From UHGV virus genome UHGV-0383223: a stretch of 6,098 bases of DNA. One strand, written 5' to 3'. Source of the stretch: a virus. Positions 12 through 5,788 of this stretch are shown one piece after another; the first letter of the stretch is position 1; the number at the start of each line of letters is the position of its first letter. The notes under the pieces were generated by a model, which had not been told where the DNA came from, ran no database searches, and was given only the letters and a program-made list of their open reading frames with translations. The position numbers and the translations under genes were made by a program.

Positions 12-62
12 TTTAGTACTTACTGATTACTAGACTTTCGCGAATAGTTGGAGGTGTGCCCT

Positions 63-1741: not shown

Positions 1742-1783
1742 ATGGCTGCCGGAACCGCACCAGCGGTGCGGTCCGGTAGCCAT
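1742..1783. promoter_or_regulatory. Long imperfect hairpin in the gVI-rep intergenic region; candidate (+)-origin or packaging-signal element
   Basis: The left arm is ATGGCTGCCGGAACCGCACC, the loop is AGC, and the right arm is GGTGCGGTCCGGTAGCCAT. That gives a stem of about 19 bp with one bulge and one G:T pair. No T-run follows, so it is not an intrinsic terminator. CTTGACA at 1786-1792 comes immediately after it. Confidence 0.5.
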
Positions 1784-2708: not shown

Positions 2709-2891
2709 ATGGATTCATTTACATCTTTTGTATCAATGTGTTATATGGCCTGTATGTTCCTGTATCTGACAGGTATGGTATTTGGCTTTTTTATAGGTCT
2801 GCTTTCCAGGTCCCTTTTTAGGGATATCACTTTATTAGTTTCTGAAGCCATTGGAAAGATAAAAAATCGGTCATTATCCAATGAGCTATAA
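2709..2891 (+). CDS. Small hydrophobic membrane protein (60 aa); possible pVII/pIX-like minor coat or assembly peptide
   Basis: AAGGGGGTGA lies 4 nt upstream of ATG 2709. There is an N-terminal TM segment (SFVSMCYMACMFLYLTGMVFGFFIGLL). The ORF track lists a longer TTG-started version from 2685. Its 3' end overlaps a convergent minus-strand gene. Confidence 0.4.
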   Translation: MDSFTSFVSMCYMACMFLYLTGMVFGFFIGLLSRSLFRDITLLVSEAIGKIKNRSLSNEL

Positions 2892-2949
2892 GACCAACGA
2901 GAAATAAACCTAAAAGGCTTAGTATGATTAGGAATATTTTTTGTTTCAT
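2827..2949 (-). CDS. Small hydrophobic peptide (40 aa, MKQKIFLIILSLLGLFLVGLIAHWIMTDFLSFQWLQKLIK), second gene of the minus-strand RHH operon
   Basis: On the minus strand AAGGAGA lies 5-6 nt upstream of ATG (plus coordinates 2947-2949). The peptide has a single TM helix. It is an internal start of the 82-aa ORF 2827..3075, which lacks comparable RBS support. It overlaps the 3' end of the + gene 2709-2891 by 65 nt. Confidence 0.45.
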   Translation of the reverse strand: MKQKIFLIILSLLGLFLVGLIAHWIMTDFLSFQWLQKLIK

Positions 2950-3004
2950 AGTATTCTCCTTCCAGCGGAGCAGCGTATACTGCTCCGTTTTATCATGAGT
3001 TTCT

Positions 3005-3211
3005 TTAACCAGTCCTTGAGATAGATGACTTTTCCAGCTTACCCTTCTGTTCTGCCCGGTTCTGTTGGGCTTCAAAATTTTTGATATAGTTTTCGATTAT
3101 TATACTTCCCATTTGGCTTATGCTTCTTTTGTCTTGTTCTGCTATATCCTTTAATTTTTGATAAATGTTTTCGTCTAATATAATTTGTACTTTGGGTTTT
3201 TTTGTTGGCAT
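3005..3211 (-). CDS. Ribbon-helix-helix (CopG/Arc/MetJ-like) DNA-binding regulator, 68 aa; candidate phage repressor
   Basis: The N-terminus KVQIILDENIYQKLKDIAEQDKRSISQMGSIIIENYIK fits a beta-strand then helix then helix RHH pattern. GAGGAG lies 5 nt upstream of the ATG on the minus strand. It is transcribed divergently from a + strand promoter that is wrapped in inverted repeats. Confidence 0.6.
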   Translation of the reverse strand: MPTKKPKVQIILDENIYQKLKDIAEQDKRSISQMGSIIIENYIKNFEAQQNRAEQKGKLEKSSISRTG

Positions 3212-3228
3212 AATTTCTCCTCAAAAAA

Positions 3229-3304
3229 GGGATTGACGGTTAATCCCCTCATGTGATATACTGAGGGTATTCCAGGGGAGTAACCTTTAATCCCCAAATG
3301 TCAA
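3229..3304 (+). promoter_or_regulatory. Sigma70-type promoter (-35 TTGACG 3233-3238, 18-nt spacer, extended -10 TGaTATACT 3254-3262) embedded in three inverted repeats; candidate operator region for the RHH regulator
   Basis: IR1 is GGGATT(3229-3234)/AATCCC(3242-3247) and brackets the -35. IR2 is CCCTCA(3246-3251)/TGAGGG(3262-3267) and brackets the -10. IR3 is GGGGA(3275-3279)/TCCCC(3291-3295). The direct repeat TTAATCCCC occurs at 3240-3248 and 3287-3295. Confidence 0.6.
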
Positions 3305-3427
3305 AGTGGTTGTTGTAGGTGCATTGGTAACCTTCCGAAAATCTGAGTCATTCCGAATAGGTGTAGGGGTACAACTATTTTACCATGATTTCAGATTTTT
3401 GTATATTACGATTTTGGAGGTGTGAAT

Positions 3428-3550
3428 ATGTGGGTAGTAGAAAACGTGAATGGCGATGGTTCTCTGGTAAAAAAAGAATTTGAGACATACCAGGAGGCAA
3501 AAGCTTACGCAGAGTGGACTTTGGGAACTGTTTGTTATGTGAAAATTTGA
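3428..3550 (+). CDS. Small hydrophilic hypothetical protein (40 aa, MWVVENVNGDGSLVKKEFETYQEAKAYAEWTLGTVCYVKI)
   Basis: GGAGG lies 7 nt upstream of ATG 3428. The ORF is below the size cutoff of the ORF track. It is the first ORF of the transcript from the 3233-3262 promoter. Support is RBS and position only. Confidence 0.35.
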   Translation: MWVVENVNGDGSLVKKEFETYQEAKAYAEWTLGTVCYVKI

Positions 3551-3589
3551 GATTTTAGTAATTAGTTGGATGGTTAAGGAGGTTAAGTC

Positions 3590-3823
3590 ATGAAAGTACA
3601 AGGTGAATTTAAGTTTTTAGGTGTGGAAAAAAGGCAAGGTTTTAAGGACCCGTCCCAGACATTCTATGTTGCCGGCTTTGCCCAGGGATTGGATTCCCTC
3701 CGCTGTTATGTGGATGCGGAGGCATATGGCAGGTATTCCGGTATTGAACCTTATTCCGATGTGACGGCGGAATTAGAATATAACCCGGTATCGGGTAAGG
3801 TTGCACTTGTGGACATTAACTAG
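3590..3823 (+). CDS. gV-like ssDNA-binding protein candidate (77 aa)
   Basis: AAGGAGGT lies 7 nt upstream of ATG 3590. Its size and position immediately upstream of the major coat gene match Ff gV. A short LRCYVDAEAY segment resembles the M13 gV LCYVDLGNEY region, recalled from memory and not verified. Confidence 0.45.
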   Translation: MKVQGEFKFLGVEKRQGFKDPSQTFYVAGFAQGLDSLRCYVDAEAYGRYSGIEPYSDVTAELEYNPVSGKVALVDIN

Positions 3824-4134: not shown

Positions 4135-4166
4135 TGGGGGTGGCGGTTGCCACTCCCTTTTTTATT
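4135..4166 (+). terminator. Rho-independent terminator after the major coat gene
   Basis: The stem is GGGGGTGGC(4135-4143)/GCCACTCCC(4148-4156), 9 bp with one G:U pair. The loop is GGTT. It is followed by TTTTTTATTT (4157-4166). Its position mirrors the strong terminator after gene VIII in Ff phages. The ATPase RBS follows immediately, which suggests partial read-through. Confidence 0.75.
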
Positions 4167-4177
4167 TGGAGGTTGCC

Positions 4178-4846
4178 ATGTCTTTTAAATGGTATATGGG
4201 TTCCCTGGATATTGGGAATGTGTTTAAGGTCTGGAAGTATAACAAGGAGTTCCGTAAACAGCACCCTGAGTATTTTGACCCGGATGGGATTATCGTGTTC
4301 TGTGGGATGCAGGGTGCTGGTAAGACAATCAGTGCCGTCCAGTATGTACAGAAACTTTGTGAACTGTATCCCCAGGTGAAGGTATGCAGTAACATGGACT
4401 TGAAACTGCCTGAGGGTATTGAGGTATATCCCTGGGATGGTGTCCACTGTTTCACGGATATCAATAACGGTTATGCCGGGGTGATATACCTGATAGATGA
4501 GATACATCTGGAGTTCAATTCGCTTGAGTCGAAAAAGATGGACAGCAATATCTTTACGGTGGTATCCCAGCAGCGCAAACAGCGTAAGCATATTGTCGGC
4601 ACATCCCAGGTATTCAGCAGAATTGCGAAACCCTTCCGGGAGCAGTTTCGCTATGCGGTCGCCTGCCGCACGGTGCTGCGGTGCATTCAAGTTAATGCGT
4701 TGATTGACGCGAAAAATGCCCGGGAGGTTGACGGCGAGGTTGTTGCCAGCAGTATCAAGCGGTTCTTCTGGTTCCACTCCCCTGCGCTGTATGACAGCTA
4801 TGACACTTATGCGGTAATGAACCGGTACCGTCAGGATTGGGGGTGA
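4178..4846 (+). CDS. Zot/pI-like P-loop NTPase (assembly ATPase), N-terminal domain only, 222 aa
   Basis: GGAGG lies 4 nt upstream of ATG 4178; the ORF track starts at TTG 4166. Walker A is GMQGAGKT. Walker B is GVIYLIDEIH. The downstream region (FN..RK..I...Q...CR) resembles the M13 pI region after Walker B, recalled from memory. There is no TM segment and no periplasmic domain. Confidence 0.7.
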   Translation: MSFKWYMGSLDIGNVFKVWKYNKEFRKQHPEYFDPDGIIVFCGMQGAGKTISAVQYVQKLCELYPQVKVCSNMDLKLPEGIEVYPWDGVHCFTDINNGYAGVIYLIDEIHLEFNSLESKKMDSNIFTVVSQQRKQRKHIVGTSQVFSRIAKPFREQFRYAVACRTVLRCIQVNALIDAKNAREVDGEVVASSIKRFFWFHSPALYDSYDTYAVMNRYRQDWG

Positions 4847-4982: not shown

Positions 4983-5788
4983 TGTGGAGGAGGATGTATT
5001 GTGTATTACTTTGTCTGGTTCTGTGTGCTCTATACTGTTTTCGGTCTTTTGCGGATGAGTATACGCTCACTGAGGAAGATTTTATGGCTCCTGAGGGATA
5101 TCCTCAGGCTGCGCAGGATGATGTGAATGGGTGGCTTTCCAGCGTCCCTGATGAGGATATGGATTTTGACCAATACCAGCAGATAATGGAGATTCTGTAT
5201 CCTGAACTGGCGGAGGAGGAAGAAAATGAAGATGATATGGATGATACTGAGGACGATGATGACATGGAAGATATTCCTGTTGCTTCTGGTTCTAATGCTC
5301 GCGTTGCTAGTGCTTCTAATGCTGGACGCACAAAAAAGGCCCAGACGGTAGCGAATATTCTGACTGTGAATTCTCCTGTGCTTTATAGTTCGTATACGCC
5401 TTATGATTCGTCCATTTCCACCACAGTGGTGACTTATATGTCCGATGTGCTCCCAAAGCTGGGGAATGTACATTACGTGCTTTTCCGCCATGGTCAATAT
5501 GCTTACCGTCTGGTTTATGCAAAGGATATGGTCTGTAACGGTACTACCTTCACGGCTGAGGATGCGCAGTATGTTGCCTATGATTCCAGGTACTATACCT
5601 GGACTTCCGGGTCGGAAGGTTCCTTCCGGCTCCAGGCCAATAACTATATTGTGTACAGTGACCTTGAGGGTTATCCGATGCTCCAGAGTGAGGCTACCTA
5701 TTATTGGCTGGTCATCTTCTTTGCCGGGGTTGCGTTGCTGTTTGTAATTTACCGCTCCCTGTTCAGTCCGGGCCGTATGCGGATATGA
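4979..5788 (+). CDS. Secreted, C-terminally membrane-anchored acidic protein (269 aa; alternative start ATG 4994 after GGAGGAGG); candidate minor virion or assembly protein
   Basis: The signal peptide is (MMWRR)MYCVLLCLVLCALYCFRSFA. A polyacidic stretch EEEENEDDMDDTEDDDDMED follows. The C-terminal TM is YYWLVIFFAGVALLFVIYRSLF with a short tail. The start is coupled to the upstream stop by ATGA. Confidence 0.55.
   Translation: MMWRRMYCVLLCLVLCALYCFRSFADEYTLTEEDFMAPEGYPQAAQDDVNGWLSSVPDEDMDFDQYQQIMEILYPELAEEEENEDDMDDTEDDDDMEDIPVASGSNARVASASNAGRTKKAQTVANILTVNSPVLYSSYTPYDSSISTTVVTYMSDVLPKLGNVHYVLFRHGQYAYRLVYAKDMVCNGTTFTAEDAQYVAYDSRYYTWTSGSEGSFRLQANNYIVYSDLEGYPMLQSEATYYWLVIFFAGVALLFVIYRSLFSPGRMRI

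Follow-up and report, generated by a model that had tools for sequence, protein, structure and literature searches.

A probable immunity module of a predicted ribbon-helix-helix repressor and paired operators in an integrating Enterocloster inovirus

The window analyzed here, a 6,098-nt stretch of DNA, is the genome, circular and 6.1 kb in size, of an inovirus that integrates in Enterocloster. It encodes a 68-residue protein with a predicted ribbon-helix-helix (RHH) fold and carries two palindromes on P(+), the promoter of the oppositely oriented main operon. Together, the RHH protein and these paired sites probably constitute a repressor-operator module that sets immunity and virus output. 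We read the module as an immunity/output switch because relatives of the phage carry at least five interchangeable versions of repressor and site. An earlier note on this DNA had located the open reading frame, the promoter, three inverted repeats (IR1, IR2, and IR3), and a duplicated motif, all of them at the correct coordinates; the elements are as follows.

3005..3211, - strand: putative RHH repressor gene, 68 aa (ORF call with profile and structure evidence)
3051..3300: exchangeable immunity cassette, sharply bounded, comprising codons 1 to ~50 of the RHH gene, P(+), O1, and O2
3229..3247: putative operator O1, GGGATTGACgGTTAATCCC = GGGATTGAC-G-GTTAATCCC, a 19-bp palindrome with 8/9 arm pairs that spans the -35 element and the early spacer
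3233..3262, + strand: P(+), with -35 TTGACG at 3233-3238, an 18-nt spacer, and the extended -10 TGaTATACT at 3254-3262 (promoter scan)
3276..3294: putative operator O2, GGGAGTAACcTTTAATCCC = GGGAGTAAC-C-TTTAATCCC, a 19-bp palindrome with 7/9 arm pairs at about +8 to +26 of P(+)
3229-3234 and 3242-3247: IR1, GGGATT/AATCCC
3246-3251 and 3262-3267: IR2, CCCTCA/TGAGGG
3275-3279 and 3291-3295: IR3, GGGGA/TCCCC
3240-3248 and 3287-3295: duplicated motif TTAATCCCC
3262..3272: TGAGGGTATTC, the right arm of IR2, just 3' of the -10 element

The suspected link to lysogeny is borne out by the relatives of the window, which are prophages in Enterocloster and Lacrimispora chromosomes, bounded by a direct repeat of 20-24 bp. 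The attachment site in the prophage lies between rep and the P(+) operon. ORF and Pfam searches identify no integrase gene in the 6.1-kb genome. A close relative from E. citroniae is reported to be secreted as virions, with an output that depends on osmolality (PMC10061712). For the E. citroniae phage, the supplement of that paper lists Zot, coat, gV-like, and Rep proteins and does not include the RHH sequence, and the present regulator is absent from the version of the paper's annotation table that was examined. For RHH/CopG repressors of inoviruses, literature searches yield only omega-like annotations, in PMBT54 and E. bolteae inoviruses, which are annotation alone. A megablast search of phage records returns no similar sequenced inovirus in that collection; its single match, 153 nt to the tailed phage PMBT24, falls within an accessory 42-aa ORF. 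A search for LexA (Cheo) boxes with up to two mismatches gives no match, and no inducer or antirepressor was found either.

P(+) is the top sigma70-type match of the promoter scan in the window, agreeing at 10/12 positions plus the TG (3254-3255) ahead of the TATACT hexamer (3257-3262), and transcription would start near 3269. This near-consensus promoter is conserved in the relatives: all lineages examined have TTGAC and the -10 hexamer, even where the intervening sequence has been replaced, and the TG extension is kept in most. On the + strand, P(+) leads into the accessory 42-aa ORF, a 77-aa gV-like protein (ssDNA-binding), the coat protein, a Zot-like assembly ATPase, and onward.

The 68-residue protein and its neighbors

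The RHH gene, which has the Shine-Dalgarno sequence GAGGAG at 3222-3217, encodes a β-strand (K7-V-Q-I-I-L12), helices at ~14-26 and from residue 31 onward, and a C-terminal tail. In a PDB profile search, RHH proteins account for all but the weakest of 15 matches, with EndoAI (E = 5.6e-4) and CopG (1.3e-3) at the head and CopG-family proteins, ORF56, and Arc among the others. A PHROG search matches four "Arc-like repressor" families, down to 6.9e-5, and Pfam RHH_5 gives E = 7.7e-4 with 19.6 bits, which is under the curated 26-bit cut-off. We find 13 homologues, with an inovirus context in every one looked up, and five of them (P0009-P0013) have precomputed RHH_5/Arc/RHH_1 matches. NCBIfam searches with the RHH protein, the gV-like protein, and Rep produce zero matches. 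The AF2 monomer model of the RHH protein has a pLDDT of 84, and its top Foldseek matches are CopG, CopA(SO), ORF56, and Arc; the best are CopG-DNA complexes, with 34% identity over 41 residues, an rmsd of 1.3 A, and a target TM of 0.82. Such modest scores from Pfam and Foldseek are the rule with RHH domains, which span 45 residues. The K7-L12 segment aligns with the CopG strand R4-L-T-I-T-L9 in the PDB profile alignment; it does not appear as a strand in the AF2 monomer, as expected for the RHH sheet, which forms only in the dimer. The agreement of PDB, PHROG, and Pfam profiles with the comparison of the AF2 model to solved structures thus supports the RHH fold that the earlier note had named, here of CopG/Arc type. 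RHH proteins are obligate dimers that bind repeated or palindromic sites, usually as higher oligomers.

Two elements follow the RHH gene.

2827..2949, - strand: ORF for a 40-aa single-pass membrane peptide, 3' of the RHH gene and co-oriented with it
2966..2987, + strand only: hairpin CGGAGCAG-N6-CTGCTCCG followed by TTTTAT, between the RHH stop codon and the peptide ORF

The hairpin is likely the terminator of the rep transcript, and the promoter/terminator scan does not list it because its T-run is short. The peptide ORF is probably co-transcribed with the RHH gene. Its conserved Shine-Dalgarno region, GGAAGGAGAATACyATG, is kept together with the ATG in the Enterocloster-type loci examined; the exceptions are L011, which has a related Shine-Dalgarno with a TTG start, L009, which has a different gene, and the Lacrimispora locus L035, which has none. 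The peptide behind this conserved start is one of at least four unrelated hydrophobic sequences.

A type II antitoxin or addiction module, in which the membrane peptide is the toxin and the palindromes are autoregulatory only, would also suit the arrangement: the RHH domain has a C-terminal tail, and the next ORF on its strand is short, hydrophobic, and equipped with a strong Shine-Dalgarno of its own. The top PDB sequence match, EndoAI, is an RHH antitoxin, and the antitoxins CopA(SO), AtaR, KacA, and MazE are among the structural matches. However, the peptide is swapped among its unrelated versions while the RHH tail remains identical; the partners therefore do not co-vary, and the toxin-antitoxin reading was rejected on this ground. 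L035 also does without the peptide ORF, and the palindromes are positioned on the -35 and start region of the opposing P(+) rather than on a promoter immediately 5' of the RHH gene. Overall, we consider an antitoxin role highly improbable.

Putative paired operators and an exchangeable cassette

The repeats IR1, IR2, and IR3 are indeed present around P(+) as described, but their layout is better read as two 19-bp palindromes and perhaps a partial third box. A repeat finder reports a unit of 19-21 bp, itself palindromic, in two copies 47 bp apart, which correspond to O1 and O2. The full arms of O1 are 3229-3237 and 3239-3247, of which IR1 is the outer portion, and IR3 and the second copy of TTAATCCCC are outer portions of O2. 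The IR2 arm TGAGGGTATTC may be a weak, partial third GGG box; L008 and L050 have GAGGGAGTAG at the matching position. Lone palindromes with 7/9 arm pairs are not rare in the window (13 observed vs 8.7 expected). The consensus palindrome GGGATTAACNGTTAATCCC, with up to three mismatches, matches the window twice, at O1 and O2, vs 0.01 expected, and two similar palindromes (>=15/19 identical) within 60 nt of each other occur in 0/300 Markov simulations. The pattern KTYAMTCCC, set post hoc, marks four 9-nt boxes at O1/O2 and nowhere else in the window. Searches with the box and palindrome patterns reveal no operator-like sites elsewhere in the window, including near rep.

Comparison with relatives shows that the repeats are conserved across genera while the nearby intergenic DNA diverges. 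The O1 half-sites are identical in L008, L050, and Lacrimispora L035/L036 despite diverged flanks. The O2 sequence is also found in L035/L036, and O2 is present at all type A loci. From Enterocloster to Lacrimispora, the half-sites of both palindromes are kept, with different spacers and flanks. The distance between O1 and O2 is 47 bp in the window, 45 bp in L008, and 34 bp in type C; helical phasing is therefore not conserved, which leaves cooperative looping unsupported. These comparative data support O1 and O2 as putative operators of the RHH protein.

The two sites could instead be arms of a hairpin in the packaged (+) ssDNA, with a role in packaging, in minus-strand initiation, or in recognition by Rep, and the RHH protein would then act elsewhere. 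They are 86% complementary to one another over 21 nt, the predicted ssDNA fold of 3212-3420 pairs them (z-score -3.5), and the type C sites form a perfect 18-nt inverted repeat that reaches past the palindromic core. Moreover, no other non-coding region of this ssDNA phage is as large as the one that holds them, and other conserved hairpins are present there. Yet each site is palindromic by itself, which a dimeric protein needs and an O1-O2 hairpin does not, and the flanks in types A and F match as direct rather than inverted repeats (type F has AGTGGTACYACTGTAGTA twice), so that two copies of a palindrome are the only constant feature. In addition, the site sequence shifts with the RHH β-strand, whereas the genuine neighboring hairpins are constant, and the positions of the sites are fixed relative to the -35 and -10 elements. 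Hairpin arms in place of protein sites are thus very unlikely, although pairing of the two in the single-stranded genome may add a structural role, and we retain O1 and O2 as candidate operators.

The cassette is most evident in the comparison with L037, L005, and L006, where identity in 50-nt bins falls to 62-80% within it (62-74% from position 3101) vs ~90-100% on both flanks. Two different backbones carry cassette A, and two carry cassette C. The overall layout, a repressor gene opposed to the main operon with operators on the promoter of that operon, is kept in all relatives. Across 52 loci of up to 16 kb each, every RHH type goes with a single operator type and vice versa, and a different palindrome is substituted at each change of the RHH β-strand. 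The boxes in these loci are confined to the 130 nt upstream of the RHH ATG. Five β-strand types are paired with boxes below, the box patterns having been drawn up after inspection of the loci.

KVQIIL/KLQVIL: GTTAMTCCC
RVQTIL: GTTACTCAC
RLTVRL: GTGACGTCAC
QVKAYI: GTGGTACYAC
RVTVYT: GTACATGTAC

The operator specificity of the RHH protein thus appears to track its N-terminal β-strand. This relationship is correlative; the RHH N-terminus adjoins the operators, so linkage alone would yield part of the correspondence.

The exchangeable cassette also bears on whether the RHH protein is a CopG-like controller of copy number or replication, or an activator, that tunes a chronic producer with no bistable switch. 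Among solved structures CopG is the nearest, secretion of Enterocloster inoviruses is continuous (PMC10061712), the 6.1-kb genome has no integrase, and the facing promoter of the distant relative L011 leads into an ssb-like gene and rep. On the other hand, rep in the prophage is not downstream of P(+). Control of rep by the RHH protein is not implied, since there is no operator-like site near rep and the attachment site splits rep from the P(+) operon. Sharply bounded, interchangeable cassettes are the signature of an immunity region, and operators over the -35 element and +8 to +26 fit repression rather than activation. We regard such a controller or activator without a switch as unlikely, noting that "expression throttle" and "immunity repressor" can both hold. 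An immunity repressor remains the preferred reading.

A candidate facing promoter and comparison with known switches

The earlier note had called the regulator divergent. The RHH gene does point away from P(+), but its likely promoter is convergent with P(+), about 100 bp off.

3377..3405, - strand: candidate promoter P(-), TATACA, 17 nt, TGgTAAAAT (promoter scan and conservation)

No other minus-strand site upstream of the RHH ATG resembles a promoter in the window. Of nine lineages scanned, seven conserve P(-) (the window, L001, L005, L008, L010, L035, and L037), and L011 has an equivalent promoter-like site. The conserved motifs of P(+) and P(-) face each other ~100 bp apart, and the P(-) motif is inside a conserved ssDNA hairpin, possibly with another role. 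A promoter back to back with P(+) was rejected: only 17 nt separate the RHH ATG from O1, and there is no conserved minus-strand -10 within O1-O2 in any lineage. The RHH gene is therefore probably transcribed from P(-), with a start near 3370 and a leader of ~160 nt that would cross O2, the -10 element of P(+), and O1. Since P(-) is located past P(+) and points back at it, this pair would be convergent rather than back to back, and any autoregulation would then operate through a roadblock or interference.

By analogy with Arc and CopG, the RHH protein would bind the 19-bp palindromes as dimers of dimers, the paired N-terminal β-strands entering the major groove, with base contacts expected from K7, Q9, and I11. 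With both O1, at the -35 element, and O2, just past the start, occupied, RNA polymerase would be excluded from P(+) or trapped there. Repressed P(+) would mean low virion production in the prophage or episome, together with type-specific superinfection immunity. Active P(+) would interfere with repressor synthesis from the facing P(-); bound repressor would lift this interference, yet restrict read-through of its own gene. The outcome would be a two-state switch, in which both the interference logic and the stoichiometry are our inference.

A close functional parallel is RstR/ig-2 of CTXφ from Vibrio cholerae. CTXφ integrates by the host XerCD recombinases and, like the present phage, is an integrating inovirus without an integrase of its own. 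The two share a small repressor gene opposite to all other phage genes and adjoining the main promoter, a bounded cassette of repressor and operator that varies among near-identical phages (heteroimmunity), and tandem arrays with other filamentous prophages, here represented by L002 and L003, at the same chromosomal site. RstR, however, is a helix-turn-helix protein and is not homologous to the RHH protein. PrstA leads directly to rep (rstA), whereas P(+) leads to the ssDNA-binding, coat, and assembly genes, with rep last. Furthermore, no LexA box is found here, and the RHH promoter seems to face P(+) rather than diverge from it. The RHH module would work like the CTXφ rstR/ig-2 family and is not a member of it by descent.

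Arc/Mnt of P22 (immI) and the phage "Arc-like repressors" have the same β-α-α fold and size class, an operator of ~20 bp that overlies or lies within a strong promoter and has two half-sites spaced by one helical turn, and recognition through the N-terminal β-strand, which is the site of the specificity differences here. Sequence identity to Arc is only ~15-20%. Arc and Mnt are secondary regulators of an antirepressor in a tailed dsDNA phage, whereas the RHH protein is apparently the sole primary regulator, and they have one operator vs the two separated sites found here. CopG (RepA) of pMV158 belongs, like the present protein, to a rolling-circle replicon of Gram-positive bacteria, and its pseudo-palindromic site overlaps the -35 element of the promoter that it represses, as O1 does in the window. 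Unlike CopG, which is co-transcribed with rep from the promoter that it represses, the RHH gene is on the strand opposite to rep, with a terminator-like hairpin between them; the RHH protein also has a 20-residue C-terminal extension, and rep is not the adjacent target.

Face-to-face promoters, whose interference sharpens the switch, are known from coliphages 186 (pR/pL) and P2 (Pe/Pc). If P(-) is real, the promoters for the repressor and the productive cycle would likewise converge over ~100 bp, with the repressor acting on the productive one. The repressors of 186 and P2 are unrelated HTH proteins, the interference proposed here derives from promoter motifs, and transcription of the RHH leader would have to pass through the operators of the RHH protein. 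An HTH repressor resembling C of P2, Pf4r, comes from a Gram-negative phage with its own integrase and excisionase. It resembles the RHH protein as the repressor of an integrated inovirus and differs in fold and host. In Pseudomonas, Pf4r (repressor C) of Pf4 is reported to govern both superinfection and production of the integrated phage (PMC8402870).

The module offers a testable candidate control point of virus output, made up of 70 bp of DNA and a repressor of 68 residues. Its five or more putatively orthogonal RHH/operator pairs, which share one scaffold, would provide a natural panel for studies of DNA specificity in β-strand recognition, for prediction of cross-immunity among co-resident Enterocloster inoviruses, and as a source of small orthogonal repressors for Clostridia. 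The logic of heteroimmune cassettes as in CTXφ would also be extended to a Gram-positive inovirus with another DNA-binding fold.

Hairpins downstream of the operators

Two conserved hairpins lie beyond O2.

3317..3333: small hairpin AGGT-GCATTGGTA-ACCT whose 9-nt loop is conserved, ~22 nt 3' of O2
3336..3401, + strand: long imperfect hairpin with a GGGG apical loop, overlapping the spacer and -10 of P(-)

Over the long hairpin, the ssDNA folds of five lineages are alike (z-scores -4 to -8). Its consensus of 17 pairs includes compensatory changes, and G-T wobbles are tolerated on the + strand only. This hairpin may be a packaging signal or the origin of the minus strand, and it may belong to the switch. 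The RHH gene is the only gene templated by the packaged (+) strand, and P(-) sits in this + strand hairpin, whose stem forms the spacer duplex. Single-strand promoters are known from Frpo of conjugative plasmids and the ssoA origins of rolling-circle plasmids. The P(-) hairpin could conceivably act in the same way, so that incoming viral ssDNA is transcribed into repressor mRNA, the transcript primes minus-strand synthesis, or both; we hold this to be doubtful. If true, immunity would be set at the first step of infection, before a dsDNA template for P(+) exists.

A 39-aa + strand ORF (3306-3425) over the conserved 3305-3405 region was considered and rejected, its frame being broken in L008. 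An Rfam search of the whole window, with E-values up to 1, returns only a chance snoRNA match, and the non-coding region falls in no known family. The small hairpin shows compensatory double changes at three of its four pairs among six lineages.

The RHH protein and its putative operators

As the earlier note proposed, the 68-aa protein encoded at 3005-3211 on the minus strand is assigned, from its sequence and a predicted model, to the ribbon-helix-helix (RHH) superfamily. Pfam matches it to RHH_5 (E=7.7e-4, below the curated cut-off), a PDB search with a profile of eight homologues returns almost only RHH proteins (EndoAI, CopG, CopG-family, ORF56, Arc, Reg576, AvtR, and TraM), and four 'Arc-like repressor' families of PHROGs match as well. 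In the AF2 model (pLDDT 84), an extended N-terminus precedes a helix at residues 14-26 and a long helix from residue 31; the structures that match it best are those of CopG-DNA complexes (34% identity, 1.3 Å). The Pfam, PDB-profile, PHROG, and model evidence agree, and since the profile searches find an RHH fold, one of the outcomes that the note named as fatal to its reading did not occur. CopG, together with the Arc/Mnt class, is structurally nearest, but the locus does not share the CopG operon organisation.

All coordinates in the earlier note agree with the window sequence, and the promoter facing the RHH gene, P(+) (TTGACG-18-TGaTATACT, 3233-3262, plus strand), is the window's top σ70-type match in a promoter scan. 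The inverted repeats described there are present, but according to the repeat finder IR1, IR3, and the duplicated TTAATCCCC are not separate elements; they are parts of a 19-bp palindrome that is present twice, at a distance of 47 bp:

3229-3247, O1, putative operator, palindrome GGGATTGAC-G-GTTAATCCC (repeat finder)
3276-3294, O2, putative operator, palindrome GGGAGTAAC-C-TTTAATCCC (repeat finder)

IR1 is the outer portion of O1, and IR3 with the TTAATCCCC copies makes up the outer portions of O2. The two arms of IR2 (CCCTCA/TGAGGG) lie on either side of the -10 of P(+), the right one perhaps representing a third, partial GGG box. A lone 7-of-9 palindrome is no rarity in the window (13 observed vs 8.7 expected); a similar pair within 60 nt arises in 0 of 300 simulations, and O1 and O2 are the window's only matches to the consensus palindrome at up to three mismatches (0.01 expected).

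O1 covers the -35 of P(+), and O2 lies at about +8 to +26, assuming a start ~7 nt past the -10. RHH occupancy of these sites would prevent RNA polymerase from binding or escaping. Within each 19-bp site, the half-sites are spaced by roughly one helical turn, like those of the Arc operator, which makes a dimer of dimers per site likely by analogy with Arc and CopG. P(+) faces an accessory ORF and the gV-like, coat, and Zot-like genes, and the promoter/terminator scan finds no terminator-like site between P(+) and the one after the coat gene. The 6098-nt window carries:

1836-2663, rolling-circle Rep gene (Pfam REP_ORF2-G2P, 1.1e-13)
3590-3823, plus strand, gV-like ORF, 77 aa
3839-4126, plus strand, coat protein gene, 95 aa
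4136-4157, terminator after the coat gene (promoter/terminator scan)
4166-4846, plus strand, Zot/pI-like ATPase gene
plus strand, additional ORFs in the window

The rep gene is the last of the circle, the attachment site severs it from P(+) in the prophage, and pattern scans of the window find no operator-like sequence near it. Direct control of rep is thus not indicated, and the contrast with the rep arrangement of CTXφ drawn in the note holds. The heteroimmune rstR/ig-2 region of CTXφ is the closest functional analogue of the module; RstR and the RHH protein are not homologous.

Palindrome types and cassette exchange among relatives

The loci compared are those of 13 homologues and of more relatives, drawn from genomes, viral contigs, and metagenomes. 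P(+) is retained in all lineages as TTGAC(A/G), a 17-18-nt spacer, and a -10 hexamer, in most with the TG extension, and these elements persist even where all sequence between and around them differs. Where the RHH β-strand is KVQIIL/KLQVIL, as in the window (proteins 58-71% identical overall, two Lacrimispora genomes included), both palindromes are conserved despite diverged spacer and flanks. When the β-strand changes, both sites are swapped for another palindrome at unchanged positions:

RVQTIL β-strand, box GTTACTCAC/GTGAGTAAC
RLTVRL β-strand, box GTGACGTCAC, two copies
QVKAYI β-strand, box AGTGGTACYACT, two copies
RVTVYT β-strand, box GTACATGTAC, three to four copies

β-strand and box types correspond one-to-one in 52 loci, and each box type is confined to the 130 nt upstream of its own RHH gene, the loci being as long as 16 kb; the RHH N-terminus adjoins the operators, so linkage contributes to this correspondence, and the box patterns were defined post hoc from loci already inspected. 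The comparison also bears on whether O1 and O2 are instead the arms of a single-stranded DNA hairpin, which we consider very unlikely. The two can pair in single-stranded DNA, and the sites of operator type C form an 18-nt perfect inverted repeat; however, O1 and O2 are each internally palindromic, the site flanks match as direct repeats in types A (that of the window) and F, and the sites change with the protein while adjacent genuine hairpins stay constant.

Against three relatives (L037, L005, and L006), identity in 50-nt bins falls to 62-80% (62-74% from 3101) within a cassette with sharp boundaries, ~3051-3300; the conserved backbone flanking it on both sides keeps about 90-100%. Two more slots are variable, one at about 2700-2950 and one, only in some relatives, at 3400-3560. 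Cassettes A and C each occur in two different backbones. The last ~20 RHH residues follow the phage backbone, not DNA-binding specificity, which places a recombination breakpoint inside the RHH gene. This conserved tail, QQNRAEQKxKLEKSSISRTG (residues about 50-68; 3005-3065, minus strand), may serve in oligomerisation or as a contact surface for a conserved partner.

Cassette swapping with box/β-strand pairing is, at the sequence level, the pattern of a phage immunity region. CopG-like copy control, or a throttle, fits much of the data and is compatible with immunity rather than exclusive of it. For inovirus production in gut commensals, the module is a well-supported, easily tested candidate control point, and its types offer a natural set of putatively orthogonal RHH/operator pairs. 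Other inoviruses have RHH annotations too (omega-like, in PMBT54 and the E. bolteae inoviruses); our literature search turned up no inovirus RHH immunity repressor that had been tested, and the text version of the supplementary annotation tables of PMC10061712 contains no RHH sequence of the window's family.

A candidate promoter of the RHH gene and neighbouring elements

The gap between the RHH ATG and O1 is just 17 nt, and the O1-O2 interval holds no conserved minus-strand -10. The sole promoter-like site on the RHH strand upstream of the gene is TATACA-17-TGgTAAAAT (P(-), 3405→3377), kept in seven of nine lineages scanned (window, L001, L005, L008, L010, L035, L037); L011 has an equivalent promoter-like site. 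If this candidate is used, P(-) and P(+) would be convergent, with starts ~100 bp apart, and the RHH leader would cross O2, then O1. Such a layout would allow P(+) to interfere with repressor synthesis, and the repressor to limit itself by roadblock.

The ~100 nt directly 3' of O2 are nearly invariant across cassette types and include the small and the long hairpin listed next. Hairpins and small ORFs around the module are:

1742-1783, plus strand, strong GC-rich hairpin, ~19 pairs, single-stranded DNA z-score -6, directly upstream of rep
2827-2949, minus strand, 40-aa membrane peptide ORF, overlapping the 3' end of plus-strand ORF 2709-2891
3317-3333, small hairpin AGGT-GCATTGGTA-ACCT, conserved 9-nt loop GCATTGGTA, compensatory changes
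3336-3401, plus strand, long imperfect hairpin, GGGG apical loop (single-stranded DNA folding, lineage comparison)
3422-3550, plus strand, 42-aa ORF in the variable slot between conserved hairpin and gV-like gene

In relatives, three of the four pairs of the small hairpin differ at both positions (CGGT/ACCG, GAGT/ACTC); possible roles for it are a Rep nick site/origin or a leader RNA element. A conserved GGTTGTTGT lies 5' of it. The long hairpin has a common fold in five lineages (z-scores -4 to -8), tolerates G-T wobbles on the plus strand only, and overlaps the spacer and -10 of P(-), whose motif its complement carries. Packaging signal and minus-strand origin are candidate roles for it, or it may be a single-strand promoter; together, the two hairpins may be packaging signal or origins. 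Rfam has no family for either. The hairpin upstream of rep, a candidate origin or packaging structure or rep regulatory element, has no trailing T-run and is followed by TTGACA at 1787.

The membrane peptide, single-pass and 3' of the RHH gene on the same strand, is headed by a conserved SD and ATG (GGAAGGAGAATACyATG; SD 2953-2962) and has several unrelated versions among relatives (40 aa in the window; 26 aa, MNIESPNFW..., elsewhere). Its slot looks like one for cargo that is co-expressed with the repressor and perhaps serves superinfection exclusion. A toxin-antitoxin reading fails because this peptide is swapped independently of the RHH tail. The tailed Enterocloster phage PMBT24 (100 kb) has a hypothetical gene whose DNA is 83% identical to the 42-aa ORF. 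In the position of this ORF, relatives have a 61-aa ORF, cysteine-rich ORFs, or non-coding DNA of ~190 nt.

Prophage state and attachment site

Both window ends are contiguous in the relatives' loci, so the window is a circular permutation of a circular genome. Near relatives are integrated in chromosomes of Enterocloster bolteae, E. citroniae, E. aldenensis, and Lacrimispora, bordered by a direct repeat with core CTAGACTTTCGCGAATAGTT (window 30-49; L001 about 4990-5010 and 11225-11245), and are found also as 6-7-kb contigs. An inverted arm, AACTATTCG, precedes the core on the host side. The E. citroniae WAL-17108 inovirus, whose Zot, coat, gV-like, and Rep proteins are near-identical to those of the window, is reported to be released as DNase-protected virions with osmolality-dependent output (PMC10061712).

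In E. bolteae, other Zot-encoding filamentous prophages lie in tandem at the same attachment site (L002, L003), recalling CTXφ/RS1 arrays at dif. The window genes include no integrase. A tyrosine recombinase gene lies ~0.7-0.9 kb past the right attachment site in E. citroniae loci (L005 12072-13124; L006 11885-12937) and might supply integration in trans; a distant relative, L011, carries such a gene inside the element, at 1548-2606.
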